DNA from: a virus
Taxonomy: Duplodnaviria; Caudoviricetes
IMG/VR virus record: IMGVR_UViG_3300014205_000006
Span: 37,278-101,277 of that record
Reading direction: 5' to 3' (one strand)
DNA length: 64,000 bases
In this document: piece after piece, positions 23,491 to 64,000 of the stretch
How positions within the stretch are numbered: the stretch's first letter is position 1
Layout: each line of letters starts with the position of its first letter
Made by a program: the position numbers and the translations under genes
Notes under the pieces: model-generated
Seen by the model: only the letters and a program-made list of their open reading frames with translations
Told to the model about the DNA's origin: nothing
The model's database searches: none

Positions 23491-23943
23491 ATGGACGCAT
23501 CGCGCCTCGACCTCGCACGCTTCGCTCACGACATGGATGGCCTCGCCGCCATCAAGTTCCACGGCGACCACGACCAAGAGGATCACGGCAACCGGGCAGG
23601 CACGGCGACGGCGGAACGCTCCGCGCCGGGCCACCGTAAGCAGCCCCCTGATCGCGCTGAGCACCGCCCGAAGCAGAGGCGGCCAGTGCTGGAGAAGTCG
23701 GCAGGGCCGCGCGTCGGATACGAGGCATTCGGACAACCCAAGGTCGGCTTCCCCAAGATTGAAGTCGTGTGGGATGGCGATGAGGAAGATGAGAGGGACG
23801 AGGCCGGGCCTCGTTTCAAGATCAACCCCAAGCCGCCCGAGACTGAGGTGGACACCGAGCACCCCGGCCTGATCAAGCGCGCCCGCGCCGCCATCGGTCT
23901 CAACGAGGGCGACTGGCCGACCTATGCCCCTCAGCCGCGCTGA
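23491..23943 (+). CDS. FH-HDQ-tagged hypothetical protein
   Basis: AIKFHGDHDQEDHGN; directly upstream of terL. Confidence 0.65.
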   Translation: MDASRLDLARFAHDMDGLAAIKFHGDHDQEDHGNRAGTATAERSAPGHRKQPPDRAEHRPKQRRPVLEKSAGPRVGYEAFGQPKVGFPKIEVVWDGDEEDERDEAGPRFKINPKPPETEVDTEHPGLIKRARAAIGLNEGDWPTYAPQPR

Positions 23944-25564
23944 GCAACTTCACGCCCTGAAGGTCGAACGTGCCCGCCGCCCCGATGGGGCTGCCACTTT
24001 CGCTGAATTGATGCTCCGAGACCATCAAACGATGGCTCCGATCCACAATGCCGACATCCACCGCGAGTGGCACGACGCTGCGAACAACCACAAGTTCACG
24101 GTGATCGAGGCTCCGCGTGACCACGGCAAGACGGAGCAGATGGCGATTGCCCGCCCGATTTGGGAGTTGGGCATGAACCCGGAGTTGCGGATCAAGATCA
24201 TCGGCAACAACGATGAGAAGGCAGCTGAGCGCGTCCGCTCCATCCGCGAGAACATCGACAACAATGAAGCCGTCCACGAGGTGTTCCCTCACCTCAAGCC
24301 CAAGCGCGGACGCGAGTGGAACGACCACAAGATCACCGTGGAGCGCCGCTCCCTCTCGAAAGACCCGAGCATCGAGGCCAAGGGCATCCTCGCCGGTACG
24401 GTCGGTGGGCGCGGCGACCTTGAGTTGTTCGACGACCCGATTGACCTGCGCAACACCATCCTCAACCCGGCCTTCCGTCAACAGATCATCGACACCTTCG
24501 ACAACACGTGGCGGAACCTGCTGGAGCCGGACGGTCGCATCCAAGCGATCATGACGCCGTGGCACACGGCTGACCTCCTGAATCACATGAAGCGCCAGTC
24601 GGACTTCTTTGTGGTGACCCACAAGATCAACCTCGACATCGGCGATGAGATTCGCAGCGAGGTCACCGACACGCACATCATCCGTGAGGGCATCCTCTGG
24701 CCGCAGCACTGGCCGCGCGAGGCGCTGGAGGAACGTCGCCGGGCGAGCGTCCGAGCGTTCCAGCGCGGCTACGAGTTGCGCCCCATCTCTGATGAAGAGG
24801 TGATGTTCGGCAAGCAGATCATCCAGCACGCCATCCGCAATGACCTCCGGTGGCCCGTCGTGCACGTCCCGCACCGCCCCGTCTTCACAGGCGTTGACCT
24901 CGCCGCGAGCCTCGGCGGGAAGGGCGCGTTCACTGTCGTCTTCACGGCTGAGGTTGATGAGCGCGGGACGCGCATCCCCATCGACATCCGCCGGGCTCGG
25001 CAGCCGTTCCCGGTGACGATCAATGACATCCGTCAGACGTGGGACATCTACAAGCCCATGCTGATCGGCGTCGAGTCCAATGCGTATCAGGCGAGCGTCG
25101 TTCAACAGCTGGCGGAGTATGCCGCTCACATCCCCGTGGTGGGCCTCGCGACCGGCACGAACAAGATGGACTTGGACTTCGGCCTTCCCTCGATGCACCA
25201 GCAGTTCGTCAACGGCGGTTGGGCCATCCCCGCCGCCGATCACGCAGACGGCTGCGAGTGCCCGCGCTGCGCGTGGGTCGAGGAGTTGGAGTCATACCCG
25301 GCGAGCGCCTACAGCGACACTCTGATGGCGATGTGGATGTGCGAGCAGGTCGTGCGCAAGGGCTATGCGGGCGTGGACGAAGGCGCAGAGCGCCTGTTGG
25401 CGCTGACTCAGACCAGTCGCTTCCTCGACAAGTGGGGAGCGTCAGAGGGCGAGTCGCGCCGCGACTGGTCGCCGCCGGGCATGACGAGCGAGCCTCTGGC
25501 CGCGCCGGGCGTGAGCATCGTGTCGTCTGCCGACAGACCGTCAAGGTGGCGCGGAGCCGGTTGA
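23924..25564 (+). CDS. terL: terminase large subunit
   Basis: Walker A APRDHGKT, Walker B LFDDP, MTPWH, nuclease GVDLA, VESNAYQ, SDTLMA. Confidence 0.92.
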   Translation: MPLSRAEQLHALKVERARRPDGAATFAELMLRDHQTMAPIHNADIHREWHDAANNHKFTVIEAPRDHGKTEQMAIARPIWELGMNPELRIKIIGNNDEKAAERVRSIRENIDNNEAVHEVFPHLKPKRGREWNDHKITVERRSLSKDPSIEAKGILAGTVGGRGDLELFDDPIDLRNTILNPAFRQQIIDTFDNTWRNLLEPDGRIQAIMTPWHTADLLNHMKRQSDFFVVTHKINLDIGDEIRSEVTDTHIIREGILWPQHWPREALEERRRASVRAFQRGYELRPISDEEVMFGKQIIQHAIRNDLRWPVVHVPHRPVFTGVDLAASLGGKGAFTVVFTAEVDERGTRIPIDIRRARQPFPVTINDIRQTWDIYKPMLIGVESNAYQASVVQQLAEYAAHIPVVGLATGTNKMDLDFGLPSMHQQFVNGGWAIPAADHADGCECPRCAWVEELESYPASAYSDTLMAMWMCEQVVRKGYAGVDEGAERLLALTQTSRFLDKWGASEGESRRDWSPPGMTSEPLAAPGVSIVSSADRPSRWRGAG

Positions 25565-25630: not shown

Positions 25631-27295
25631 ATGGCGACCGGCGACGACAACGGCGCGAGCCCTTCCCTCACAGGTGGCCTTCCGGCGGTAGCGGACGCGG
25701 AGCGCGACACCGTCAGCCTCTCTGAGGTCGGCACCTCCGGCCTTCGGCGCTATGGCGGCATCATCCAAGAGGAGTTCCTGCCTGAACTCCGGGGCCTGCG
25801 TGGCGTCCGCGTCTTCCAAGAGATGCGCTGGAATGACCCCACTGTCGGCGGCATGATCCGCGCCACCAAGGACGCGATCCACTCTGTGAAGTGGGACGTG
25901 GAGGCAGACGGCGAGGAGGCAGTCGACAACGAGGCTGAAATCTTCCTCCGTCAGTGTATGGACGACATGTCCCACTCGTGGTGGGATATGGTCAATGAAG
26001 CGCTCTCCATGATCGCCTTCGGCTGGGCGTACCACGAGGTGGTCTACAAGGTTCGGCAGGGGCATAACCCGAGCGGCACTGACGCGTGGGGCCAGCCGCT
26101 TCCCAAGTCCAAGTTCGATGACCGTCGCATCGGTTGGCGCAAGATTGCCCTGCGCGGGCAAGAGACGCTCTACCGCTGGGACATCGACAACACTGGCGGC
26201 ATCCGGGCGATGCTCCAGTTTGACCCGGTCGCGGGCGGCGGCATCCGCACCATCCCTATTGAGCAGGCCCTCCTGTTCCGCACCGACCGTGAAAAGAACA
26301 ATCCCGAGGGCGTGTCGATGCTCCGGTGGGCGTACCGCCCTTGGTACTTCAAGAAGCAGTTGGAGGAGATTGAGGCCATCGGCATCGAGCGCGACTTGGT
26401 GGGCATGCCCGTCATGACGCTGCCTCAGGGCGCGACCGTCTCTGACCGCAACATCGCCCTCGACATGCTCCAGAAGTTGAAGAGTGACGAGTCCACCGGC
26501 CTCGTGCTCGTGCGCGGCATCGATGAGCGCCACGACTGGACATTCGGCCTGACGCAGTCGTCCGGCGCTCGGACGGTCAACACGCACCAGAGCATCGACC
26601 GCTACTCGGGCGAGATTGCGCTGGCGTTCCTCGCGCAGTTCCTCCGGCTCGGCGCGGCGGGCGGCGGCTCGTATGCCCTGAGCCGTGACCAAAAGGATTT
26701 CTTCTACCTCAGCATCACGTCCATCCTCGACTCCATCGAGGAGGTCATCAACAACTACCTCGTGGTCAAGTTGTTCGAGTTCAACGAGGTCGCCTTCAAG
26801 GGGCTCAAGAACCCGCCGAAGATCAAGCACGGCAAGGTCGGCCAGCGTGAGATGGTCAACTTCGTCAACGCGATCAAGTCGCTCGCCGACGCCGGGCTGC
26901 TCGGCCCGGTGGACTCTGACCTGCTCCAGTTCTTCCGCACGACCCTCGACCTGCCTGAGATCAGCGCCGATGAGATTGACGCGATGGACAAGGCGCGCGA
27001 GGAGCAGGGCCCCGCGCCGATGACGCCGGGCATCTCCCCGACCGCTGCGCTCCAAGCGGAGACTGCCGCTAAGGTCGCAGAGACCAAGCCGGACGGCCCC
27101 ATCAAGGAGACGGACAAGCACCCTGATTCGCCGCGCGAGCCGGGCGACGGGAACAACGGTCAAGCGGCGTCCGGCGGCGCGAAGGGCGACCAGCCGAGCG
27201 GCGACGGCAGCGGTCACGCCGGGAGCGGCGACCGCAAGATGGCAGAGCCCGTCGCCGCCGGAGGCATCCTGCGCAAGTGGCTCGCCCCGCGCTGA
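25631..27295 (+). CDS. portal protein (DUF935/Mu gp29-like)
   Basis: EEFLPELRG, FGWAYHEVVY, NNPEGVSMLR, IGIERDL.G.P, GSYALS; follows terL. Confidence 0.88.
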   Translation: MATGDDNGASPSLTGGLPAVADAERDTVSLSEVGTSGLRRYGGIIQEEFLPELRGLRGVRVFQEMRWNDPTVGGMIRATKDAIHSVKWDVEADGEEAVDNEAEIFLRQCMDDMSHSWWDMVNEALSMIAFGWAYHEVVYKVRQGHNPSGTDAWGQPLPKSKFDDRRIGWRKIALRGQETLYRWDIDNTGGIRAMLQFDPVAGGGIRTIPIEQALLFRTDREKNNPEGVSMLRWAYRPWYFKKQLEEIEAIGIERDLVGMPVMTLPQGATVSDRNIALDMLQKLKSDESTGLVLVRGIDERHDWTFGLTQSSGARTVNTHQSIDRYSGEIALAFLAQFLRLGAAGGGSYALSRDQKDFFYLSITSILDSIEEVINNYLVVKLFEFNEVAFKGLKNPPKIKHGKVGQREMVNFVNAIKSLADAGLLGPVDSDLLQFFRTTLDLPEISADEIDAMDKAREEQGPAPMTPGISPTAALQAETAAKVAETKPDGPIKETDKHPDSPREPGDGNNGQAASGGAKGDQPSGDGSGHAGSGDRKMAEPVAAGGILRKWLAPR

Positions 27296-40337: not shown

Positions 40338-40519
40338 TGTCAGAGCCGGAGACGATCAAGTGCGGGGAGTGCTCCACGCCCGTCTTCAAGGTGGTGGGGC
40401 CGAACATCGTCCTGCTCGCCCGGCACCACGGCTCTCCGCACACGACCGTCATCCCAATCTCCTCGCTGGTCGCCGGGCCCATCGGTGACTCTGCGTTGTA
40501 CGAGGCGCTCAAGCGATGA
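40337..40519 (+). CDS. small Zn-ribbon protein
   Basis: IKCGECST...RHHG..H; coupled on both sides. Confidence 0.55.
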   Translation: MSEPETIKCGECSTPVFKVVGPNIVLLARHHGSPHTTVIPISSLVAGPIGDSALYEALKR

Positions 40520-41451
40520 TCACACGACTCGGCGCACCTGTCCCCGCTCCGCCCGAGTGGCCTGTGTACCAGTTCCACGGCGACCATGATCAGTCGACAC
40601 ACGGCAATCGTGACGGCGGAAGTGCCGGGCCGTCCGAGCCCGCGCCCTCGCTCCGCAGTTGGCGAGTCAGCGACGGCGACACCCTCAAGCGCCACAAGCC
40701 TGACGGCAAGAACTGGACGCGCGAGCGGAAGGCGCTTCACGAGAGGCTGGTCAAGAAGGCGATCAGCAAGGTCGCGCCCGCCGAGGGCGGCAAGCCGACG
40801 CTCTACATGATGGGCGGCGGGCCCGCTGCCGGCAAGTCCGACCTCGTCAAGAACAACCTCGTGGACCACCCGGACGCCGCTCACTCGGTGAGGGTTGACC
40901 CGGACGAGATCAAGGGCGAACTGCCCGAGTACCGCCAACTGGTCGCCGTGGGCAACCTTGAGGCGGCGGGCATCGTCCACGAGGAGTCGTCGCACGTGTC
41001 CAAACGCGTCATCGATGAGGCGCTCAAGTCCGGTCGTCACACCGTGTACGACTCGACCGGCGACGGCTCCATCGAGAGTCTGTCGGGCAAGATTGCGGCG
41101 GCGCGAGCGGCGGGCGCCAAGCGCATCGAGGCGGACTATGTGACCGTCCCGACCGAGATGGCCGTTCAGCGCGCGCTCGCCCGCGCCAAGAACCCCGAGA
41201 GCAGTTCGTTCGGGCGACTGCCCGACCTCAAGATTGTGCGGGAGACGCATCGCAAGGTGAGCGAGGTCTTGCCACAGGCGATCCAGCGCGGCTTGTTCGA
41301 CAAGGTCAAGGTCTGGGAGTCCACCGGGCGCACGCCGCGTCTCATCGCCGAGGCGCGCGGCGCTCGGATCACAGTCCACGACCAAGCCGCTTGGAAGCGG
41401 TTTCTGGCGAAGGCCGATGAGGACGACGGCGACGGGACGGTGTACGACTGA
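40516..41451 (+). CDS. FH-HDQ-tagged zeta-toxin-family P-loop kinase
   Basis: YQFHGDHDQSTHGN; MGGGPAAGKS, VDPDEIK, VHEESS, YDST, GR.P. Confidence 0.82.
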   Translation: MITRLGAPVPAPPEWPVYQFHGDHDQSTHGNRDGGSAGPSEPAPSLRSWRVSDGDTLKRHKPDGKNWTRERKALHERLVKKAISKVAPAEGGKPTLYMMGGGPAAGKSDLVKNNLVDHPDAAHSVRVDPDEIKGELPEYRQLVAVGNLEAAGIVHEESSHVSKRVIDEALKSGRHTVYDSTGDGSIESLSGKIAAARAAGAKRIEADYVTVPTEMAVQRALARAKNPESSSFGRLPDLKIVRETHRKVSEVLPQAIQRGLFDKVKVWESTGRTPRLIAEARGARITVHDQAAWKRFLAKADEDDGDGTVYD

Positions 41452-41627
41452 TGGAGAGCCTACCCGAAGTGAGCAACAAGATGCTGCGCGCGGCCCTCGA
41501 CGGCAAGTCATTCGAGGATGTCGGCGTGGAGGACACGCCCTACAACCGGCGTCTGTGGGCTTCACGAATTGAGTACGTCGCCGAGGCCCGCCGCCTTGGC
41601 CTTGAAATTGAATTCGCAAGGGAGTAG
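41451..41627 (+). CDS. 58 aa ORF, candidate antitoxin of the zeta kinase (not in ORF track)
   Basis: TGATG overlap with the zeta stop; MESLPEVSNKMLRAALDG...FARE. Confidence 0.55.
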   Translation: MESLPEVSNKMLRAALDGKSFEDVGVEDTPYNRRLWASRIEYVAEARRLGLEIEFARE

Positions 41628-41631
41628 CATC

Positions 41632-42369
41632 ATGCGTCCGACCTCTCGCTCACTCAAGGCCGGCACGCCGCACAGCGCTCCGCGCCCGGCGTCCGCCCGG
41701 CCCAAGGCCGAGCCGCCCAAGCACTTCGCTGGCGACGTCACGGCGAGCCGCTTCACGTCGCACGAGGTCATCGACCCGGAGACGCTGAAGGCCCCGGCGC
41801 GCGACAAGCGCCTCAGCGACCTCGACGCTGTGAACGCTGTGAAGTTCCACGGCGACCACGATCAGAGCGACCACAACCCTCACAAGGGCGGTGGCGGCGG
41901 TGTCGGCGGCGGCGAGGCGGCAGCCCGTGACGGCGTGTCAAAGGAGATTCAAGCCGAGCGCTGGGGCAAGCCCGGCGAAGCGCCGTGGGACTCCAAGCAG
42001 GCCAAGGCTGCTCTGACGACCATCCGGTCTGAGAAGGCGAATTTGATGCGCGCGGCGATGGACCACAAGTCCGAACGCCTCGCCAAGATCAGTCCGGGTC
42101 GTGTCGAGCGTGGGCTGGACTTCCTCGTCACCTCTGTCAACGCAGAGGCGGAGTTTGGAGAGAAGCCGTCTGCTGACGAGGTCAAGCGGGTGTTGAGCGA
42201 TGTGCGCAAGTCGCTCCCCGAGGCGCACCACGCCAAGTTCGATGCGTTCGCCGGGAAGGTCAACAAGGCCCTCGGTATCGGCACCTCAGCGATTGAAGCG
42301 GCCTTCAAGAAGCCGCTGTCCGGCAAGGATGACGCCAAGGAGCGCATGAACCATCCGGGGCTCTGGTAG
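41632..42369 (+). CDS. FH-HDQ-tagged helical protein
   Basis: NAVKFHGDHDQSDHNPH followed by a Gly linker. Confidence 0.65.
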   Translation: MRPTSRSLKAGTPHSAPRPASARPKAEPPKHFAGDVTASRFTSHEVIDPETLKAPARDKRLSDLDAVNAVKFHGDHDQSDHNPHKGGGGGVGGGEAAARDGVSKEIQAERWGKPGEAPWDSKQAKAALTTIRSEKANLMRAAMDHKSERLAKISPGRVERGLDFLVTSVNAEAEFGEKPSADEVKRVLSDVRKSLPEAHHAKFDAFAGKVNKALGIGTSAIEAAFKKPLSGKDDAKERMNHPGLW

Positions 42370-43132
42370 TGAGACCTCCGCAGTTCAACGGCTTCATGAG
42401 CGGCTCTCACTTCGCCGCCGTGCCGCTCCCCGGTGGACTGGAGGAGCAAGACCCCTCTGCGCTCGTCCAAGGCGGGAAGCCGCTGACCGGCGTGAACGAC
42501 AACCTCGGCGACGGCATGCCGAGTGACCCGATGGTCATGCCCGTCTACACGCCGCCGGTGGAGCCCGTCCTGCCCGACCTCGGGCCCGAGGTCACGCCGA
42601 TTGAATTCCAGAATCTCCTCTGGAAGCGCGGTGTGAAGGATGTTGCGGAAGCCACTTCCCCGCCACAAGGCATGCCCGGTGACACCGATGGTGGATAACT
42701 CCCCGGAAGTCAAAAAGCGCTGTACGCAGCGCCATCTCCTCAACCATCGGACGGGGACGATCCATCACTCGCGCTGCGAAGCGATCAAGGCCGAAGTCAA
42801 CAAGACGAACTTCGAGGAGGTGAGCATGCGCCTCGCCTCTGTGTTCCTCGCGCGCTACAAGCGCTGCGGCATCTGCTACGCCAACGACTGCTCCCGCCCG
42901 TAACAGTCACGACGCTAGACTTGAGCGAGACAGGGGGCCGGGCATGGCAGACCTCAACCAACCCGTGATCACAGGCAGGGATGCCGAGTTCCTCCCGACG
43001 ATCAACCGTGTGCTCCGCACCATCATGCGTCCCGGCGAGGGGTTGATCATCGCGAGTGACGGTGATGTGATCAAACCGCTTCCGGGCCAGACCTTGATCG
43101 TCGCCGTCTCATACGACGACCCGGAGTAGGCT

Positions 43133-45063: not shown

Positions 45064-47037
45064 ATGACCGCGCTCCACGACGCCCTCCGCGACTCGATGC
45101 GCTTCCACGGTGATCACGATCAGAGTTCTCACGGGAACCGTGGTGCCAGTACTGGCGGCGAGCCGCGCCACGACAAGGATGGCGCGACGAACATCCAGAA
45201 GATGCTGAAGATGGTAGCGCAGACGTCGGGCCGCGAGCCCGGACGCCCCAAGTCGTCCGCTGCGATCATCCTCGACCACGGACGCGAGTACAAGCCGGGC
45301 CCTGACACATACAAGGGGCCGCGCGGCCAGCAGGGCGCTTGCTACATGAATGCCGGGCGGATGGTGCTGAACTCCTCGGCGGATGAGGGTCTGACCTACG
45401 TCGAGGGCTACATGACGGTGTACGGCATCCCGATTGAGCACGCTTGGGTCGTGGACAAGTCCGGCGCGGTGATCGACCCGACCATCAAGCCCGACGACAA
45501 CGGCCACGCCTACTTCGGTGTGCCATTCACGACTGACTACGTGCGCGAGACGGCGCTGCGGACGGGCATGTGGGGCATCATCAGCGGGATGAGCAACCGC
45601 GAGTTGTTCACAGAGTCAGACGCGCAGACGCGCTCCCACGTCAAGAAGTTCAACGAGGGCGGGCCGGTCGCCGCCGGACTCGCTGTGCTCGCGCTCGACA
45701 CCGGGCGCGTCCTGATGCTCCGCCGGGCATTCAACCCGCACGACGGCTCTGGCGAGGTTGACGAGGCGGCTGGCACGTGGGAGTTCCCCGGCGGCCACGT
45801 TGACGACGGCGAGGATGCGTTTGACGCCGCCCGGCGCGAGTGGGAGGAGGAAGTTGGCCTCACGCTCCCGCCCGGCGCGATTCACGGCGAGTGGACGTCG
45901 CCGAATGGCGTGTACCAAGGCTACGTCTACGCAATCCGCGCCGAGGCCGATGTCCCGTTCAGCAACGACCGTGACGAGGTCACGAACCCTGACGACCCCG
46001 ATGGCGATGGGCGCGAGTCGCTTGCGTGGTGGGAGCCCAACGCGATGCGGACGGGCGAGGGGCTCAGGCGCGAGTTGGCGGGCGACATCGCCCTCGTCTG
46101 CGATGCCATCGGCGAGCGCCCGACCCTCCACGAGGCGCTCCGGGCGGCGCTCCGCTTCCACCTGCCAGGCGAGCACGACCAAGCCGACCACGGCCAGCGG
46201 AACGGCTGGACGGCCTCCAACCGCGAGCGCAAGGAGCGCGAGGCTGCCAAGAAGGCCGGGGCAACGCCCAAGTTGACGAGCAAGGGCATCATCGACACAT
46301 TCATGACGGCACGCTCGTACTCCTCGCCGACGCCCGAGGCGCGCGAGGCATCCCTCAAACTGGCCAAGCAGTTGTACGAGGCCGAAGGCGTCAAGGTTGA
46401 AATTCGCTCCATCACCAACCAAGGCTCTGCGCCGTTTGTCGAGATGGAGATTTGGCCGGATGGCCCGCGCGGCCCGCGTGACGAACCCCTCGCCTCGCTT
46501 GTGCGCGAGTTCCGTGAAGGCGGCGACGTTCACAACTCGTACTTCAGGATCAACCGGGGCGACATGCAGGGCGGAGGCCTCGCCGCTCGCATCGCCGCGC
46601 ACTCTGAGCGCCAGTTGTTCGAGGCGGGCTTCAAGACCCTCAGCCTCAACGCGAACATCGATGTGGGCAAGTACGCATGGGCCAAGCAGGGCTTCGACTT
46701 CGCCGACCCGCACGTGGCAACTGAAAAGCGCGAGCGCCTTGTCGAGTTCGTCGCCAAGGAGACGGGCCTCAACATCGGGCAGGCAGAGGCGAAGGTCGCA
46801 CAATTGGCGCGGGCCAACGGCGGTCTGAAGCATGCCTGGGAGTTCGCGGCGCTTGACGACGGCAAGAAGTACGAGTGGAGCAGCAATAGCAAGAGGGGCG
46901 ACGGGCACCTGGGCAAGGCCTTCATGCTCGCCGACTGGTCTTGGGATGGCGTGAAGCAACTCGACCCTGACTCCACGTCGCAGAAGGTCTCACGCGCCTA
47001 CATCGAGGCCACGGCCAAGAAGGGCGGCAAGAAGTGA
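45064..47037 (+). CDS. polyprotein: tag - papain/transglutaminase-like domain - NUDIX - tag - GNAT-like domain
   Basis: GACYMNA..YVEG..EHAW..IDPT (Cys-His-Asp); WEFPGGHVDDGEDAFDAARREWEEEVG (Nudix box); QGGG..GKYAWAKQGF; two FH-HDQ tags. Confidence 0.8.
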   Translation: MTALHDALRDSMRFHGDHDQSSHGNRGASTGGEPRHDKDGATNIQKMLKMVAQTSGREPGRPKSSAAIILDHGREYKPGPDTYKGPRGQQGACYMNAGRMVLNSSADEGLTYVEGYMTVYGIPIEHAWVVDKSGAVIDPTIKPDDNGHAYFGVPFTTDYVRETALRTGMWGIISGMSNRELFTESDAQTRSHVKKFNEGGPVAAGLAVLALDTGRVLMLRRAFNPHDGSGEVDEAAGTWEFPGGHVDDGEDAFDAARREWEEEVGLTLPPGAIHGEWTSPNGVYQGYVYAIRAEADVPFSNDRDEVTNPDDPDGDGRESLAWWEPNAMRTGEGLRRELAGDIALVCDAIGERPTLHEALRAALRFHLPGEHDQADHGQRNGWTASNRERKEREAAKKAGATPKLTSKGIIDTFMTARSYSSPTPEAREASLKLAKQLYEAEGVKVEIRSITNQGSAPFVEMEIWPDGPRGPRDEPLASLVREFREGGDVHNSYFRINRGDMQGGGLAARIAAHSERQLFEAGFKTLSLNANIDVGKYAWAKQGFDFADPHVATEKRERLVEFVAKETGLNIGQAEAKVAQLARANGGLKHAWEFAALDDGKKYEWSSNSKRGDGHLGKAFMLADWSWDGVKQLDPDSTSQKVSRAYIEATAKKGGKK

Positions 47038-47702
47038 TCCCTGTGATCCTGCCCAAGGACGCGCCCCATGAGGGCTCTGACGAGGACTTCTGGCTGCCAG
47101 ACGAGGATGACGACGCCGAGTGGCTTGACGCGATGAAGCGCATCGACCTCTCCGAGCCGGACGCGGGTGACGTCCACGTTGACGGCGTCCTCAAGTTCGA
47201 GCCCGCCGACGATGAGGATGAACTCATCGACCGTGATGACGACGGGCACCGTCCGCGTCTCCATGAGCGACTCCTCGCCGCGCTCCGCCCGCTTCGTGAG
47301 CGGCTTCGCGACGCGATGGGCTTTCACGCAGAGCACGATCAAGAGGATCACGGCAACCGCGATGGCGGCGGCAAGGAAGGCGAGAAGGGTGGCGGGCGTC
47401 GCGGGCGAGGACGTTGGACCGACCTCGGCGGCGGGCCGAACCGCAACCCTGAGTTCGAGCAGCCGCGCCGCTTCCGCATCAACCGTCACGCGAAGGGGCG
47501 CATGGTTGAGCGCCGCGTGTCAGAGGAAGCCGTCGAGTACGTGCTGAAGAACTACGGCATGAAGATTCCCGCCGCGCCCATCCCCGGCGCGCCGCGCTCT
47601 GAAATTCGCCTCGGCAACTTCCGTGGCCGTCCGCTGGCCGTGTACGTCGAGGAGGATTCCAACCCGCCGTACGTGAAGACGGTCGCTTGGAGAGACGAAT
47701 GA
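47034..47702 (+). CDS. acidic N-domain - tag - DUF4258 (RelE/BrnT-fold) RNase-like toxin
   Basis: HAKGRMVERRVSEEAVEYVL...LAVYVE...VKTV. Confidence 0.75.
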   Translation: MIPVILPKDAPHEGSDEDFWLPDEDDDAEWLDAMKRIDLSEPDAGDVHVDGVLKFEPADDEDELIDRDDDGHRPRLHERLLAALRPLRERLRDAMGFHAEHDQEDHGNRDGGGKEGEKGGGRRGRGRWTDLGGGPNRNPEFEQPRRFRINRHAKGRMVERRVSEEAVEYVLKNYGMKIPAAPIPGAPRSEIRLGNFRGRPLAVYVEEDSNPPYVKTVAWRDE

Positions 47703-49264
47703 TCGAACTGGAGTATGACGCCGAGGATGACATCCTGTATGTCCGGCTCGGGTCGGGCGCGGTCGCGCGCTCGCGCGCGTTCGGCGACTCCCGCATCGTG
47801 GACTTCAACGCGGGCGGCCAGCCCATCGGCGTCGAGTTCATCGGCGCGAGTGCGGGCGTTGACCTGAGCGGCATCCCCGAGGGCGAGCGCATCCGGCGTG
47901 AGGTCGAGGACTTGGCTCTGGAGGAGTCATCGCGGGAGTTCTGCGAAGGCCTCTTGGAGGCGATGAACTTTCACGGCGACCACGACCAGTCCGATCACGG
48001 CAGTTGGGCCGACGGCTCGGCTGACTTCGAGCAGACGGTTGCGGGCGAGCGCGGCAAGAGCAAGTGGTTCAACCCTCTCAAGGACACGCCCGCCGTCCGC
48101 GCGGCCAAGACAGCCGCGTTTGAGGCGGCAGTTGCGCGCTGGGGCAAGACCGATGACTGGACGAAGGGCGGCTACATCCTGAAGGATGGCTCGCAGATTC
48201 AGTTGCGGGGCAACGCCAACGGCAGCACACACGATGAGTTCGCGCGGGCCGCGATGCCGCAGGAGTTGTACCCTGAGGCGTGGACTGAATACGACGGCAA
48301 GCGTGACTATGACTTCGGCCCCGGCCTCACGACGCTCCAACAAGACACCGGCATCATCCGCATCCTGCCCGAGACGGACGGCCAGATGCAGGGTGGCATC
48401 GGCAAGGCGGTCGTGACAGTGAACCTGCCGCCGGGCGGGGCGTCAGACTCGCAGGTGAACCTGCTGGAGTCCATCCTTGGACAGACAGGGCGATTGAGCA
48501 TCACCACTCCGCAGGACGAGTGGTATGACATCACACAGCCCAACGAGTTGCGCCGGGCGAATGCCATCATCAAGGGTGAGCGCGGCCCGCTGACGGACAT
48601 GGAGCGCGCTCGTCTGCGCTTCCACGAGGAGCACGACCAGAGCGAGCACGGCAACTGGGCGTCAGACCTCGCGAGCGGCAAGGGTGGCGTGAAGTCAGAG
48701 TTGAAGTTGGCGCCCGTCCGCCAGCGGGCCTTCAAGGGCGAGCAGGTCTCCATCCCCGACAGGTTCAAACTCAGCAAGTCCGAGACGAGCAAGTTGACCG
48801 AGCAAATCGCCGCCGCCTACGCCGAGCGCGCCGGGCTCCGCAACGCGCGGCTCCTCGGCCACGACGGCAAGAACAACTACCCGGTCGATGTGGTCGCCGG
48901 GCGGACGCTGTACGAGGTCAAGGGCGGGCAGGTGTCGAACAGCGGCGGCGCTCAGCAGTTCCGCATCACCGTCGATCAGAACTGGCAGGCAGAGGCCCGC
49001 GACAAGGCGCGAGCGAAGGGGCCCGAGGCGCTCCGCCGCTTCAATGCCCGCGCGCAGCGCGACGCTCTGGCCCGCAAGGAGAAGGCGGTGGCCGCAGTCT
49101 CTGAGCAAGCGGGCAAGCAGTTCTCTGGCGGGACGATTGGCGTGATCATCAACCCCGTCACCAAGACGGCGGACGTCCACGTGTTCGAGGGATTCCACCA
49201 GCGCATCGGTTGGCGGTCTGAGGAGGCTGAGAGTGGCTATGTCGGAACCTTCCGCTACCGATGA
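47699..49264 (+). CDS. DUF2283 antitoxin - tag - unknown domain - tag - PD-(D/E)XK nuclease-like domain
   Basis: YDAEDDILYVRL...IVDF...PIGVEFIGAS; YPVDVV...LYEVKGG; two tags. Confidence 0.75.
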   Translation: MIELEYDAEDDILYVRLGSGAVARSRAFGDSRIVDFNAGGQPIGVEFIGASAGVDLSGIPEGERIRREVEDLALEESSREFCEGLLEAMNFHGDHDQSDHGSWADGSADFEQTVAGERGKSKWFNPLKDTPAVRAAKTAAFEAAVARWGKTDDWTKGGYILKDGSQIQLRGNANGSTHDEFARAAMPQELYPEAWTEYDGKRDYDFGPGLTTLQQDTGIIRILPETDGQMQGGIGKAVVTVNLPPGGASDSQVNLLESILGQTGRLSITTPQDEWYDITQPNELRRANAIIKGERGPLTDMERARLRFHEEHDQSEHGNWASDLASGKGGVKSELKLAPVRQRAFKGEQVSIPDRFKLSKSETSKLTEQIAAAYAERAGLRNARLLGHDGKNNYPVDVVAGRTLYEVKGGQVSNSGGAQQFRITVDQNWQAEARDKARAKGPEALRRFNARAQRDALARKEKAVAAVSEQAGKQFSGGTIGVIINPVTKTADVHVFEGFHQRIGWRSEEAESGYVGTFRYR

Positions 49265-49427
49265 GTCTGAGGACGTTGTCTTCGCAGACGACGCGCCCCT
49301 GACCGATGAAGAGATGATCGACCTGCTCGGGCCCGAGGGCTTTGCGCGATACCAGCAACAGTTGGAAGAGTACGACAAGTGGTTGGAATCGCAACTGAAG
49401 GTCGCGCCCGACTCGTCTGACGACTGA
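49233..49427 (+). CDS. small acidic protein, candidate immunity protein
   Basis: Overlaps the 3' end of the nuclease gene; GAGGAGG RBS; very acidic. Confidence 0.55.
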   Translation: MAMSEPSATDESEDVVFADDAPLTDEEMIDLLGPEGFARYQQQLEEYDKWLESQLKVAPDSSDD

Positions 49428-49518
49428 CCAACCTCCCCATGGTATAGACGGGCCATGACTCCCACCCCTAGCCTTCCCGCTAACGGCTCATTCAACAGAT
49501 ATGAGTTTGGGGAGACGC

Positions 49519-50901
49519 ATGGCCGACAACACCGCCGAACTTGAAGAGTCCATCGTCAGTCTCCAAGAGGCTGTGATCGACGTACAAGACCACTCGGCGG
49601 CTATGGCCCGCGAAGCGGCTGCCGCCCTCGCCGAGGGAGACTGGGCCACCGCTGGCGAGGCTCTCAACGAGATCATCGACAAGTTCGCCACCGACCCGTC
49701 TGAGGGCAAGGTGGACATCGAGGCGCTCCGCAAGAAGCGCGATGACGACGATGACGACGCCTCCGATGACGACGACAAGCCCAAGGGAGAGATGACCGCC
49801 ATGAGCGAGCAGATGCGCGTGGGGGTCGCCCTTGACGAGGGCGAGCCCGCGAAGCCCATCCAGATTTTCCGCACCGGGGAGTTCAACCACCCGAGGTACG
49901 GCAAGATCATCATCGACCAGAAGATGCTCGGCGAGATCGCCAGCAACTTCAAGTCCCGCGTCCGTGGCCAGGACATCCCCATCGACCTTGAGCACAAGAA
50001 CGACCAAGGCGCGGTCGGCTGGATCAAGGACGTCAAGTTGGAAGAGGGCGCGCTGTGGGCGACGCCCGAGTGGAGCGAGGACGCCGCTCGCGACATCCGT
50101 AACAAGAAGTTCCGGTACATGTCGCCGCAGTTCGGGCCGTGGACCAACCCGGAGACGGGCGCCAAGTTCGATCACGTCCTGATGAGCGCCGCTCTGACCA
50201 ACTACCCCTTCCTCAAGGAGATGGAGCCCGTCAGCCTGAACGAGATTCAGGCGTGGGCCGAGTCGGACAAGTCGGACGGGCCCCCGTGGCTCAAGGACAA
50301 GGACAAGGGCGACGACGGCGAGGACGCCGAGAAGCCCGCAGCCAACGAGGACAAGCCCGCCGACGACGCCGGTGACGACGACGACGACGGTGAAACCAAG
50401 ATGCACGAGGAGCGCAAGATGGACAAGCCGGTGAGCCTCGCGGAGAACCCTGAGTTCATCGCGCTGGCGGAGCAGAACGCGGTGCTGGAGCGCAAGGTCG
50501 CCCTCATGGAGCGCGCGGAGCGGGTCACCCGCTTCAGCGAGATCATCGATGACGGCAACTGGGTCGGCGACCGCGACTCGCACGTCTCCTTCATGGAGTC
50601 GCTGGCCGACAAGTTCGGCGAGGACTCCGAGGAGTTCAAGTTCCACGTCGCGCAGCAGAACGCGACCGCGAAGGTCATCACGTCCTCGCCGATGTTCTCC
50701 GAGCGCGGCACGCGCGGCTCGGGCGTGACGGTCGCGGGTGACGAGGCCATCAAGACCGCTGCTCGTGAGCTGGTCGCGTCCGGCCAGGTCAAGAACTTCA
50801 GCGAGGGTGTCGAAATGGCGATCCAGAACGACCCCGCGCTGTACGAGGCGTACGACCGCGCCCACAAGCAGCGCGTCCGGCGGGCGACCGGCGGCGAGTA
50901 G
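49519..50901 (+). CDS. Mu gpI-like prohead protease/scaffold
   Basis: IPIDLEH, AVGWI, FRYMSP.F, AALTNYPFL, acidic coiled scaffold tail. Confidence 0.88.
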   Translation: MADNTAELEESIVSLQEAVIDVQDHSAAMAREAAAALAEGDWATAGEALNEIIDKFATDPSEGKVDIEALRKKRDDDDDDASDDDDKPKGEMTAMSEQMRVGVALDEGEPAKPIQIFRTGEFNHPRYGKIIIDQKMLGEIASNFKSRVRGQDIPIDLEHKNDQGAVGWIKDVKLEEGALWATPEWSEDAARDIRNKKFRYMSPQFGPWTNPETGAKFDHVLMSAALTNYPFLKEMEPVSLNEIQAWAESDKSDGPPWLKDKDKGDDGEDAEKPAANEDKPADDAGDDDDDGETKMHEERKMDKPVSLAENPEFIALAEQNAVLERKVALMERAERVTRFSEIIDDGNWVGDRDSHVSFMESLADKFGEDSEEFKFHVAQQNATAKVITSSPMFSERGTRGSGVTVAGDEAIKTAARELVASGQVKNFSEGVEMAIQNDPALYEAYDRAHKQRVRRATGGE

Positions 50902-62550: not shown

Positions 62551-64000
62551 GTGGTCAGCGGCAACGGCGACATCGTCATCCGTCTGCGGGCTGAAGATGA
62601 CTTCAGCGACATCATGGACACGTTCCGTGATCAGGTGGGTGACGCGCGCCTTGCCGTGAGCGACCTTGAAGAGGGCAACATCTCTGCCCGTGAATCCTCT
62701 TCTGAGCTGATGCAGGCCGAAGCGCTCCTCAGCGACATCCTCTCCCAACTCAACAACAACCTCACGAACAGCGTGGGGGCGCTCGGCGAGGTACAGTCAG
62801 AGGCGCTGTTGGTCGCCAATGGCACGTCCGAGGCGGCGCTCACGGCGGGCGCTCTGTATGGGGCGCTTGACCTGTTGGTCGGCTCCGCGACCGAGGCCTC
62901 GCAAGCGCTGTCAGGCCTCGCCGACAACGGGCTCGGCGGTCTGACGCAGCAGCAGAATGACCAAGCCGACTCCGCTGAGGCGAGCGCCGCCGCCTCGGGC
63001 GATATGACTGACGCACTCGGCAATCTGTCGTCGGGCGTCAGCAACCTCGCCCCGCAGTTGAACACGCTGGTCGGTGTGACAGGCAACTTCGCCACGTCCA
63101 TGGAGGGCATCGTCACCGGCCTCAACAGCGAGACGGGCTTGATCGGTACGGTCACCGCGTTCACCGCAGCCGTCGCCGCGACTGCCGCCGCTGTCGGATT
63201 CCTCGGCAAGTCCGGCATCGACTACATGGACCAGCAAGCGCGCATCAGCACGATGACCGGCCTCGCCATCGAGGAGGTTGACCGCTGGTCCACGGCGATG
63301 AACCTCGCGAATGTGAGTTCCAGTCGCCTCTCCCTCATCACGCTCCGCCTCGGCAACTCAATGGAGGAGGCGATGGCGGGCGGCACGTCGCGAGCGGCAG
63401 ACGCCCTGCGCGAACTCGTGCCGGGCCTCAGCGATGCGAACGCGCAAGCGATGGAGATGGACGAGTTGCTCCCGCTCGTGTTCGGCAGCCTTCAAAAGAT
63501 GGACGAGCAGACGCGGAACGCGGCGGGCTCGGCACTGTTCGGCGTTCGTGCTTGGCGCGAGTTCATCCCTCTTGTCAAGGACTTCGAGGGGAAGATGGAC
63601 GCGGCGAATGGCGTGCTCGCCCGCACGCCCATCGAGATGCAGCAAGCGTCCGACATGACCGACCGCTACAACCTCGCCGCTGAGGAGTTGGGACGGCAGT
63701 GGACTGCCCTCGCCGTGACCGCTGCACCCCTCGTGCTCGCCTCGGTCGAGGCGATTCTGACCGGCATCAACGCACTGAAGAGCGCGACGATGGGCTCCAT
63801 CGGCTTCGTCAAGGAGCACTCCGCCGCTTTCATAGCCCTCTCCGTGGCCATCGGCATCGTCGCCGCGCCCGCCGTGATCAGCGCGCTCGTCTCGGGCCTC
63901 ACAGCCCTGAGCGTCGCGATGGCGGCTGGCGCGCTCGCAGCGATGGATCTCACGGCCACGATGTGGGGACTCTCGGCGGCCATCGTGGGCAACCCCGCGA
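62551..64000 (+). CDS. tape measure protein, 3'-truncated (not in ORF track)
   Basis: GTG start, MVSGNGDIVIRLRAEDDFS; Ala/Leu-rich helical frame running to the window end. Confidence 0.85.
   Translation, partial: MVSGNGDIVIRLRAEDDFSDIMDTFRDQVGDARLAVSDLEEGNISARESSSELMQAEALLSDILSQLNNNLTNSVGALGEVQSEALLVANGTSEAALTAGALYGALDLLVGSATEASQALSGLADNGLGGLTQQQNDQADSAEASAAASGDMTDALGNLSSGVSNLAPQLNTLVGVTGNFATSMEGIVTGLNSETGLIGTVTAFTAAVAATAAAVGFLGKSGIDYMDQQARISTMTGLAIEEVDRWSTAMNLANVSSSRLSLITLRLGNSMEEAMAGGTSRAADALRELVPGLSDANAQAMEMDELLPLVFGSLQKMDEQTRNAAGSALFGVRAWREFIPLVKDFEGKMDAANGVLARTPIEMQQASDMTDRYNLAAEELGRQWTALAVTAAPLVLASVEAILTGINALKSATMGSIGFVKEHSAAFIALSVAIGIVAAPAVISALVSGLTALSVAMAAGALAAMDLTATMWGLSAAIVGNPA

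Follow-up and report, generated by a model that had tools for sequence, protein, structure and literature searches.

The MuF polymorphic toxins of temperate phages are encoded in head or packaging modules and are presumed to be capsid-borne, with a small protective ORF after them (Jamet et al. 2017, PMC5576092). For the MuF toxins in phage head modules, a small putative immunity ORF comes next in 89% of cases (PMC5576092). The phage polyvalent proteins contain strings of NUDIX, GNAT, zeta-like kinase, BECR RNase and nuclease domains (Iyer, Burroughs, Anand, de Souza, Aravind 2017, PMC5512222). They are head-associated and are presumed to enter the host along with the injected DNA (PMC5512222). 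No in-line antitoxin or immunity domain is described in that paper, where "neutraliz" has 0 occurrences. Bacteria and archaea encode two-gene, toxin-antitoxin-like modules of DUF4258 (PF14076) and DUF2283 (PF10049) with the toxin first and a tight junction, either an ATGA overlap or a spacing of a few nt. DUF4258 has been placed among the BECR RNase toxins as Ntox49/colicin-like (PMC11980606; bioRxiv 10.64898/2026.08.28.747851), and "little is known" about it (PMC11980606).

The window, the whole stretch of DNA analysed here, spans the 64 kb at the right-hand end of a phage genome of 101 kb and 66% GC. It contains a row of tagged cargo genes, of which the following are used here.

40516..41451, + strand, tagged zeta-toxin-like kinase cargo (PF06414, E 7e-23)
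45064..47037, + strand, ORF5, a tagged polyprotein of 657 aa (ORF list) with a GTGA overlap with ORF6 at its end
47699-49264, + strand, ORF7, 521 aa, with DUF2283 first and then its own His-rich tags and cargoes (ORF list, Pfam)
49233..49427, + strand, ORF8, 64 aa, acidic, net charge -16 (ORF list, charge computation)
49501..50901, + strand, Mu gpI-like head maturation protease/scaffold (PF10123, E 4e-19; phrog_328 head maturation protease, E 3e-22)

ORF6 and ORF7 lie within a long co-oriented late gene row, and ORF5 to ORF7 sit in the head-morphogenesis module. The portal is a separate gene (25631-27295), and the tagged cargo row lies between it and the prohead protease. Directly downstream of the cargo genes Pfam identified a Mu gpI-like protease, a cement protein and the major capsid protein. 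The modules found or indicated in the row are NUDIX, zeta, BECR, GNAT-like and REase-like. PHROGs annotated as "minor head protein", as well as the C-terminal ends of minor capsid proteins of Bacillus phages, match both the zeta and the GNAT-like modules. Unlike the MuF toxins, ORF5, ORF6 and ORF7 contain no MuF (PF04233/PF06152) or portal domain detectable with Pfam and PHROGs, and a His-rich tag marks the modules. The predicted protective domain does not stand alone but is part of the following cargo protein; the classical arrangement would be that of ORF8. Unlike in the polyvalent proteins, the domains are distributed over translationally coupled ORFs, and one of these opens with a predicted antitoxin.

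Each enzyme module is headed by a short leader helix and the tag FH-x-[DE]-HDQ-x-x-H-G. The cassette grammar of the array is leader helix, tag, Gly-rich linker and cargo. A six-frame motif scan found 9 copies of FH-x-[DE]-HDQ-x-x-H genome-wide, 9/9 in + strand ORFs of the window, at positions that include 47334, 47981 and 48632. The HLPGKHDQ form was found at 9 IMG/VR loci. In other viral contigs the same tag stands between portal domains and effector modules (ART, GNAT, 2H-phosphoesterase), and it also heads a GNAT-Acb1 protein. We infer that tagged proteins are loaded into the capsid and cleaved at the tag. The Mu gpI-like protease is the candidate enzyme for any such processing.

The capsid-targeting sequence of the internal proteins of phage T4 (IPI-III, Alt) is removed by the prohead protease. 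It is likewise a short N-terminal leader on unrelated head-interior proteins, with the protease gene adjoining. The tag of this phage differs in that its sequence is unrelated and that it also occurs internally and after long N-terminal additions.

The junction of ORF6 and ORF7 carries the main finding.

47034..47273, + strand, ORF6 acidic N-terminal segment, residues 1-80, net charge -20, pI 4.06 (charge computation)
47274..47354, + strand, ORF6 leader helix and tag FHAEHDQEDHG, residues 81-107 (motif scan)
47457..47699, + strand, ORF6 DUF4258 predicted toxin domain, residues 142-222, BECR-fold, colicin-E5-like RNase (Pfam, homologues, AF2 model)
47699..47914, + strand, DUF2283 predicted antitoxin domain, first ~72 residues of ORF7 (Pfam, partner alignment, junction sequence)

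An earlier note on this DNA had claimed that ORF6 (47034-47702) ends in a DUF4258-like domain and that the ATGA-coupled next ORF opens with a DUF2283-like domain. Pfam bore out both. DUF4258 (PF14076) lies at residues 151-218 of ORF6, where it scores 31.8 bits with a gathering threshold of 25 (E 1.8e-7). DUF2283 (PF10049) lies in the first ~50 residues of ORF7 (40.1 bits against 23, E 4.1e-10). The junction reads ...GGAGAGACGAATGATC..., in which the ATG of ORF7 (47699) overlaps the TGA stop of ORF6 (47700-47702) as ATGA, with GGAG upstream. The start of ORF7 was fixed at this ATG because free-living DUF2283 proteins align from there.

The DUF4258 domain appears to be an ordinary and intact member of its family. 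Exhaustive phmmer found ~40 free-living DUF4258 proteins of 65-122 aa that match residues 142-222 of ORF6 only. The best of them has 50% identity (E 2.4e-16). The domain keeps the family-conserved M157, R160, G198, R199, Y204, P211 and T216, as well as the mostly conserved H152; R156 is present too. R160, R199 and T216 are invariant across 19 aligned sequences. The putative catalytic set, which is the His/Arg of the first helix and the Thr of the last strand, is retained. The AF2 model has a pLDDT of 86.9 and the order H-H-E-E-E-E. Its best PDB matches are colicin E5 RNase domains, with TM 0.53-0.55, probability 0.85-0.98 and E only 0.1-0.4. The next matches are HigB2, a CDI toxin and RelE. 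A profile search of the domain also placed colicin E5 on top, weakly. The pI of the domain is 10.0.

The earlier note had stated that DUF4258 and DUF2283 genes normally occur as an adjacent pair, and this held for the nearest free-living relatives. A DUF2283 gene of 80-86 aa comes next at -4 to +4 nt in 7/7 contexts with readable downstream DNA (L010, L011, the P0009 contig, L018 and L038 with complete genes; L012 and L017 with truncated genes), and 3/7 share the 4-nt overlap of the phage. Between residues 1-72 of ORF7 and the DUF2283 proteins encoded beside the nearest DUF4258 homologues, identity is 36-51% (44% for the L038 partner). Residues 1-72 align with 6 partners and keep every invariant position. 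Compared with free-living pairs, the toxin and antitoxin halves alike have 44-51% identity. A profile search found no solved DUF2283 structure. The partner identity and the adjacency in all contexts mean that both halves trace to the same kind of operon, and that the whole toxin-then-antitoxin unit was captured with its junction intact. The identity of the domains, the anatomy of the junction and the cognate origin of both halves are observations. By homology and gene order, the junction is a true cognate toxin-antitoxin pair split over two tagged cargo proteins.

The pair differs from the bacterial and archaeal modules in several respects. A classical type II module is two small free-standing proteins; here the partners are domains of proteins of 222 aa and 521 aa, and the bicistronic junction is retained. 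The toxin domain has an acidic segment, a leader and a tag in front of it. The antitoxin is the N-terminal domain of a two-cargo polyprotein. The phage copy lies in a head module and not in a chromosome. Classical type II antitoxins are labile and autoregulate their operon through a DNA-binding domain; Pfam and a further domain search detected no DNA-binding family in ORF7.

The rest of ORF7 contains two tags and two cargo domains.

47915..48001, + strand, acidic linker, leader helix and tag 1, FHGDHDQSDHG, residues 91-101 (alignment, motif scan)
48005..48583, + strand, middle cargo domain, residues 103-295 (no family match)
48620..48652, + strand, tag 2, FHEEHDQSEHG, residues 308-318 (motif scan)
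48761..49261, + strand, C-terminal basic domain, ~residues 355-521, pI 10.2 for residues 325-521 (Atlas, motif)

The stretch of linker, leader and tag 1 stands where free-living DUF2283 proteins have their last ~8 residues. The middle domain has no match in Pfam, NCBIfam, PHROGs or PDB sequences. The C-terminal domain is a putative PD-(D/E)xK nuclease toxin with D397, E406 and K408. The earlier note's terminal nuclease has Atlas leads and a visible D397...E406-x-K408 motif in its favour, and it has no Pfam match even at E 10. The Atlas leads are Tox-REase-7 at 0.90 and, by structure, UPF0102/NERD/Hjc (TM 0.46-0.71 to UPF0102/NERD). The D and E are kept in the sole homologue, P0049, in which the K is an R. 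The AF2 model of this domain has a pLDDT of 39.5 and is unusable.

ORF5 precedes the pair and is built in the same tagged manner. Its order is leader, tag 1, a Cys-His-Asp (transglutaminase-like) N-domain, NUDIX (PF00293, residues 204-328, E 7.7e-16), leader, tag 2 and a GNAT-like C-domain.

45103..45135, + strand, tag 1, FHGDHDQSSHG, residues 14-24, after a 13-residue leader (six-frame motif scan)
46156..46194, + strand, tag 2, FHLPGEHDQADHG, residues 365-377, the "HLPG" form common in other phages (motif scan)
46216..47034, + strand, GNAT-like C-terminal cargo domain, residues 385-657, pI 9.3 (ESM-Atlas; phrog_27103, E 2e-20)

The C-domain has an Atlas feature score of 0.92 to a cluster with PF00583 in 20% of its members. 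Its structure has TM 0.60-0.66 to GNAT/MuF-containing clusters and 0.37-0.40 to classical GNATs. The earlier note's description of ORF5 as GNAT-ending is therefore backed by ESM-Atlas look-alikes only, with no Pfam match. Homologues of the domain lie at the C-termini of Bacillus phage minor capsid proteins.

We think it fairly probable that a captured toxin-antitoxin unit sits in the cargo row, and that its toxin is silenced, co-loaded and released in the next host. A two-gene DUF4258/DUF2283 unit would have recombined in frame into the accessory cargo row. The RNase toxin would have lost its own start and gained a leader and tag in front, which would make it the tagged cargo of ORF6. On the antitoxin side, the start codon and its ATGA overlap with the toxin stop would have been preserved. 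A few residues at the end of the antitoxin and its stop codon would be gone, and translation would now run on into the leader, tag and polyprotein of ORF7. Translational coupling would produce the DUF2283 domain right after each toxin. We infer that this domain binds and neutralises the RNase in the virion-producing cell. Toxicity and neutralisation are predicted at the level of the families, because neither DUF4258 nor DUF2283 has been experimentally characterised. Both partners are tagged, and the complex may be loaded into the prohead as such. Processing, or unfolding on ejection, would part toxin from antitoxin. A non-covalent complex would survive cleavage at the tags, so the model has to include a further step, in which the complex unfolds during ejection or the antitoxin fragment is lost. 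The RNase would then act in the next host beside the zeta kinase, NUDIX, GNAT-like and nuclease-like cargoes. The layout suggests, without proving it, a means of keeping a packaged RNase toxin harmless while virions form.

The earlier note had gone further and held that the same layout recurs along the row. In that form the recurrence is not supported; the likeness is one of charge, and the acidic pieces have no homologues among the proteins searched. In a full chain, each ORF-terminal toxin would be neutralised by the N-terminus of the next ORF, namely GNAT by the acidic head of ORF6, DUF4258 by DUF2283 and the nuclease by ORF8, and a maturation protease would cut the tags and arm the toxins inside the capsid only. 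We consider this unlikely. Three consecutive basic C-domains (pI 9.3, 10.0, 10.2) do precede acidic segments (net charge -20, -12, -16) at overlaps of 4 nt or 32 nt, the latter being that of ORF8 with the end of ORF7. The middle pair is a proven cognate module, and the protease gene is directly downstream. Net charge of -16 or below occurs in only 0.7% of the 64-residue windows of this genome's ORFs, but the protease/scaffold and similar head proteins are acidic too, so acidity is not specific. The very acidic peptide that the earlier note placed after ORF5 was confirmed in its charge. Residues 1-80 of ORF6 have no covering homologue among 1.8 billion representative proteins (exhaustive phmmer) and no Pfam match, and the small ORFs that follow the GNAT-like homologues in Bacillus phages are unrelated and not acidic. 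The small acidic ORF claimed after the nuclease was likewise confirmed in its charge, and its GTG start codon follows a strong Shine-Dalgarno sequence, GAGGAGG, at a distance of 7 nt. ORF8 has no homologue among phages. It is also absent from the head modules of capsid-related phages, and is therefore a member of the array and not a core head gene. Both outer "antitoxins" are thus without a homologue or a recognisable domain, and toxicity of the GNAT-like domain has no support. The ORF after the zeta kinase (41518/41632-42369) has a basic, Pro-rich N-terminus before its tag, and 41518-42369 contains no Pfam family and no antitoxin-like domain; therefore there is no general rule. Other toxin-like cargoes of the row, the zeta kinase and NUDIX among them, have no in-line inhibitor, which also speaks against the reading of the captured pair given above. 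In 8 ORFs with the tag from other viral contigs, Pfam found no antitoxin or immunity domain before the first tag. The acidic start of ORF6 is an unproven candidate in-line inhibitor and ORF8 an unproven candidate free-standing immunity protein; as a guess from charge, they may inhibit the preceding basic GNAT-like and nuclease-like domains. A general safety-catch, in which each nucleic-acid-targeting cargo is produced along with an acidic inhibitor from the start of the next gene, is quite improbable. The tagged complex would be loaded, the head protease would cut at the His-rich tags, the inhibitor fragments would be lost or displaced as DNA fills the head, and the toxins would be armed only in the sealed capsid. 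Engineered toxin-immunity fusions cut by a co-expressed protease, made for recombinant toxin production (PMC13675652), resemble this scheme, as a covalent inhibitor neutralises transiently and proteolysis frees the toxin. They differ in being man-made and in carrying the immunity protein on its own toxin, whereas the phage antitoxin is on a different, downstream cargo and meets the toxin in trans.

The unit could instead be a passenger that landed by illegitimate recombination and whose loss is costly or neutral, or an adaptor whose contact only couples ORF6 and ORF7 for loading; in either case the RNase would be idle in the next host. Toxin-antitoxin units are mobile and frequent in phage genomes, both domains are ordinary family members without special features, and in all that was searched this genome alone has the arrangement. 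It is absent from every relative, and the array as a whole is missing in phages whose capsid proteins are 62-66% identical. Because it occurs in a single genome, selection for the fusion cannot be shown. This reading is nonetheless distinctly unlikely. Both fusions are in frame and obey the cassette grammar of the array. The base composition of the inserted module is fully phage-like, with the same GC and GC3 as the rest of the phage, and its reading frames are unbroken. Every conserved toxin residue is retained, which favours a used and active cargo over a recent accident. It is extremely improbable that the fusions are assembly or sequencing errors and that the tagged genes in reality flank a free-standing toxin gene and a free-standing antitoxin gene. 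The source is a single contig. However, an error would have to remove the antitoxin stop, or the toxin start and the stops upstream, without disturbing the frame. In ORF6 the tag and Gly-rich linker share the frame of the toxin domain, DUF2283 reads in one frame into a normal leader and tag, and GC3 backs these frames. Identical products of 521 aa and 222 aa are in a public protein collection, probably from the same assembly.

The arrangement is one real in-line toxin-antitoxin junction, in one genome, and a variant on the known polyvalent and MuF toxin-immunity layouts. Phage heads carry toxin-like enzymes, among them the polyvalent proteins and MuF toxins, and protection of the producer cell while late genes are expressed has mostly been guessed from small downstream ORFs. 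In this phage homology puts a name to one protective partner, which forms a covalent part of the cargo that follows. The finding shows that cargo cassettes headed by the tag are able to take up entire toxin-antitoxin operons. The C-terminal domain of ORF6 and the N-terminal domain of ORF7 are a concrete pair for studying neutralisation, co-loading and release, and the pair would give a first functional handle on the uncharacterised DUF4258 and DUF2283 families. Should the other two acidic neighbours turn out to be inhibitors as well, virion-borne toxins would follow this layout as a general rule of design. The safety-catch, if true, would mean that engineered cleavable toxin-immunity fusions have an equivalent in nature, and would explain why the effectors that phages inject do not poison the cell that produces the virions.

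At the boundary of ORF6 and ORF7 a predicted toxin domain is followed directly by its predicted antitoxin. The three ORFs behind the tagged polyprotein ORF5 are as follows.

47034-47702: ORF6, 222 aa; acidic head (residues 1 to 80, net charge -20), leader and tag (81 to 107), Gly/Arg linker, DUF4258 domain
47699-49264: ORF7; DUF2283 domain, leader and tag 1 (tag residues 91 to 101), 190-residue domain without a family, tag 2 (308 to 318), basic C-terminal domain
49233-49427: ORF8, 64 aa; net charge -16, GAGGAGG ribosome-binding site, overlaps the end of ORF7

The earlier note described ORF6 as ending in DUF4258 and an ATGA-coupled ORF7 as opening with DUF2283 before its own tag and cargoes. 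This is correct, and both Pfam scores are above gathering. ORF6 scores 31.8 bits for DUF4258 (gathering score 25), and ORF7 scores 40.1 bits for DUF2283 (gathering score 23). The ATG of ORF7 at 47699 overlaps the ORF6 stop as ATGA, with GGAG upstream. The end of ORF5 and the start of ORF6 overlap as GTGA. Both overlaps look like ordinary translational coupling. A -1 frameshift joining ORF5, ORF6, and ORF7 was rejected; neither junction shows a slippery heptamer.

ORF6 was searched exhaustively with phmmer against 1.84 billion representative proteins, and about 40 small free-living proteins (65 to 122 aa) were retrieved. They match only residues 142 to 222, the best at 50% identity (E value, 2.4e-16). 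The few matches to the tag region include ORF7 itself and two multi-tag proteins. The nearest toxin homologues also bear out the adjacency of DUF4258 and DUF2283 as a gene pair, which was found in 7/7 readable contexts. On the contig of homologue P0004, a PF10049 gene encoding 80 aa begins 1 nt past the toxin stop. The gap is 4 nt on the contig of P0005, and the two genes overlap by 4 nt on those of P0009 and P0010. Two short contigs end inside the downstream ORF, and the remaining part still aligns as DUF2283. The seventh context, metagenome locus L038, contains an ATGA-coupled pair between chromosomal-type genes. The DUF2283 partners are 36 to 51% identical to ORF7 residues 1 to 72. Relative to them, only the last ~8 residues of the phage domain are swapped, for a linker and a leader into tag 1. 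Given this adjacency and identity, the sequence evidence is that the two halves are one captured toxin-first bicistron whose junction survives. A tag cassette was fused to the 5' side of the toxin, and the antitoxin lost its stop and runs on into the next cassette. The module matches the rest of the phage in GC and GC3, so it is not a fresh insertion.

The toxin domain appears intact, with all conserved positions kept. ORF6 contains every position that is invariant or nearly so among 19 family members (M157, R160, P179, A180, G198, R199, V203, Y204, V205, P211, and T216). It also contains H152, the usual first-helix His of the family. The AlphaFold2 model from the 19-member alignment is confident (pLDDT, 86.9), with two helices and a four-stranded sheet. 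Its closest solved structures are five entries of the colicin E5 tRNase domain (TM, 0.53 to 0.55; probability, 0.85 to 0.98; E value only 0.1 to 0.4). HigB2, a CDI toxin, and RelE follow. Colicin E5 also came first, weakly, when PDB sequences were searched with a profile. This resemblance agrees with the published placement of DUF4258 among the BECR RNase toxins, in a colicin-like Ntox49-related branch (PMC11980606; bioRxiv 10.64898/2026.08.28.747851). No member of DUF4258 has been examined experimentally (PMC11980606). A lead connecting DUF2283 with QseM/FseA was dropped; PMC4755241 applies the name to FseA homologues, and toxin partners are absent from that paper.

The earlier note also proposed that the same layout recurs at two further links. 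What holds is that the acidic ORF6 head and ORF8 follow a GNAT-like end and a nuclease-like end, respectively. Three consecutive basic domains, which are probably nucleic acid directed, are each followed by a segment of net charge -20, -12, or -16. Such acidity is found in only 0.7% of 64-residue windows of this genome's ORFs. The claim is weakened by the acidic pieces themselves, which contain no recognized domains. The ORF6 head had no homologue among the 1.84 billion representative proteins (phmmer), and ORF8 had none among 50,697 phage records. Related phages share a conserved head module, and ORF8 lies outside it. A tagged zeta-kinase ORF is a counterexample; the ORF after it has a basic, Pro-rich pre-tag part that is possibly partly noncoding. 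No inhibitor adjoins either of the internal domains, NUDIX and Cys-His-Asp.

Pfam gave no match for the C-terminal domain of ORF5. Its likeness to GNAT comes from ESM-Atlas, both in features (0.92) and in structure (TM of 0.60 to 0.66 to clusters that include GNAT/MuF proteins), and the domain matches phrog_27103. In Bacillus phages PBC5 and Shanette, its homologues are the C termini of "minor capsid proteins." Small ORFs lie 1 to 2 nt downstream of those genes, an arrangement as in MuF toxins. These ORFs are not acidic and are dissimilar to the ORF6 head. The ORF7 C-terminal domain has a pI of 10.2 and contains D397...E406-V-K408. In features it is similar to Tox-REase-7 (0.90), and in Atlas structure to UPF0102/NERD. 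It has one homologue only, and its AF2 model (pLDDT, 39.5) was too poor for a structure search.

Positions 42369-42698 contain a 109-aa acidic (pI 4.1), Pro-rich ORF without a family. It abuts the end of tagged ORF 41518-42369; here, too, an acidic ORF comes after a basic tagged cargo. Kinship of the ORF6 head, ORF8, the protease head, and ORF 42369 was considered and rejected; their similarity is compositional only. Over the first ~40 codons of ORF 41518 (41518-41640), the GC3 signal is weak and the translation is a low-complexity run of Pro, Ser, and Arg. ATG 41632 or a later codon is more likely to be the true start of this ORF.

The tag, F-H-x-[DE]-H-D-Q-x-x-H, is present in nine copies in real ORFs. 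All are among the portal-protease accessory genes and nowhere else in the genome. Each copy has a 10- to 15-residue amphipathic leader ahead of it (pattern L..AL..AM.FHG) and a Gly-rich linker and domain behind it. Among the domains tagged in this way are a zeta-toxin-like kinase (PF06414) and NUDIX. One tagged ORF lies apart from the rest at 23491-23943 (tag, 23554-23589), with the probable large terminase (23924-25564) and portal directly downstream. Tag 2 of ORF5 is a closely related form, K-H-L-P-G-K-H-D-Q-S-S-H-G. This HLPG form was found in nine IMG/VR contigs, versus no IMG/VR match for the exact FHGDHDQ DNA pattern. Elsewhere it lies behind portal domains and ahead of ADP-ribosyltransferase, GNAT, or 2H-phosphoesterase modules, and one 112-kb IMG/VR contig contains ten copies inside 11 kb. 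In IMG/VR locus L004 (2848-5559) a prohead serine protease domain (Peptidase_S78) has an HLPG-x-HDQ tag upstream, and in L001 (608-3844) two copies of the tag separate a portal domain from an ADP-ribosyltransferase. By these placements, the tag marks module boundaries generally in head-associated fusion proteins. A 499-aa protein from a Logan assembly (P0002) has the order tag, GNAT, Acb1 (anti-CBASS phosphodiesterase; PF23474; E value, 3e-36), tag, ART-like. By its sequence, the His-rich tag heads a known antidefense enzyme too. In eight tagged ORFs from other viral contigs, no antitoxin or immunity family turned up in the N-terminal part ahead of the tag. The architecture shares its theme and domain repertoire with the polyvalent proteins (Iyer et al. 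2017, PMC5512222), for which no in-line inhibitor is listed, unlike the ORF6/ORF7 junction.

The source contig is 101,277 bp with 66% GC, and the window is its final 64 kb. Genome positions 101155-101277 (window 63878-64000) repeat positions 1-123. This 123-bp overlap points either to a terminal repeat or to an assembly that closed into a circle, and the phage genome is thus probably complete. The head genes are as follows.

25631-27295, plus strand: Mu-type portal (PF06074)
49501-50901, plus strand: Mu gpI-like head protease/scaffold (PF10123, phrog_328)
Plus strand: cement protein and E-type major capsid protein

Accessory genes fill the roughly 22 kb of the interval 27295-49501: the tagged cargo row, a 1,319-aa AAA+ protein, a GDP-mannose dehydratase, and a 604-aa fn3 fiber-like protein. 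In the capsid-related phages (L021 to L029; major capsid protein 62 to 66% identical), the portal lies 1 to 2.4 kb upstream of the protease, versus ~22 kb here. The entire block is accessory. The compact portal-protease-capsid modules of those phages contain no HDQ tags, DUF4258, DUF2283, or ORF5 to ORF8 homologues.

Searches for the arrangement in other genomes were negative. Against 50,697 phage records, the region and ORF6, ORF7, and ORF8 gave short NUDIX matches only (BLASTN and TBLASTN). IMG/VR scans with ORF6 and ORF7 and a metagenome scan with ORF7 returned no match. A word-based protein search returned the query itself and one tag-only match, and for the DUF4258 domain it gave no candidate. 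When IMG/VR was scanned with a DUF2283 profile, a single gene (L019) was retrieved, free-standing and untagged. The arrangement is supported by one genome, and the array is absent from the phages with 62 to 66% identical capsid proteins.

The order of the domains, the signals for coupling, the cognate origin of the two halves, and the intact toxin domain are established here, and a mechanism may be proposed beside them. The DUF2283 domain would bind the RNase, as family-level gene pairing suggests. Translational coupling would deliver it right behind each toxin. The tags may steer both proteins into the prohead, which is consistent with gene position and tag distribution. The neighboring protease or the ORF5 Cys-His-Asp domain may then cut near the tags, by analogy with T4 internal proteins. 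Toxin and antitoxin would separate during ejection or later. This step is the weak point because tag cleavage leaves the noncovalent complex unbroken. By eye, the ORF5 domain (45241-45588, residues ~60 to 175) has a transglutaminase-core/papain-like signature, G-A-C-Y...E-H-A-W-V-V-D...V-I-D-P-T, which forms a Cys-His-Asp triad. It had no match in Pfam, NCBIfam, or PDB sequence searches, and its role could be to process the tagged polyproteins as a peptidase or to act on the host as an effector.

We favor, with moderate confidence, a role for the in-line DUF2283 antitoxin of ORF7 in protecting the producer cell. The full chain, with all three toxins neutralized by the start of the next ORF, has the acidic followers on its side and the zeta-kinase counterexample against it, and we consider it unlikely. 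A passenger or adaptor role of the toxin-antitoxin unit, against which the conserved toxin residues count, is rated slightly lower again. That the fusions are an artifact is very improbable, with a single contig on one side and unbroken reading frames through both fusions on the other.

DUF4258/DUF2283 pairs are already known. So are head-module toxins with downstream immunity ORFs (PMC5576092), single-chain toxin-antitoxin fusions (PMC11980606), engineered cleavable toxin-immunity fusions (PMC13675652), and polyvalent proteins (Iyer et al. 2017, PMC5512222). We found no published description of an antitoxin fused ahead of a different, downstream cargo in a tag-delimited array. The components themselves are known, and what is new, in this one genome, is an antitoxin that heads another cargo protein inside a tagged array.
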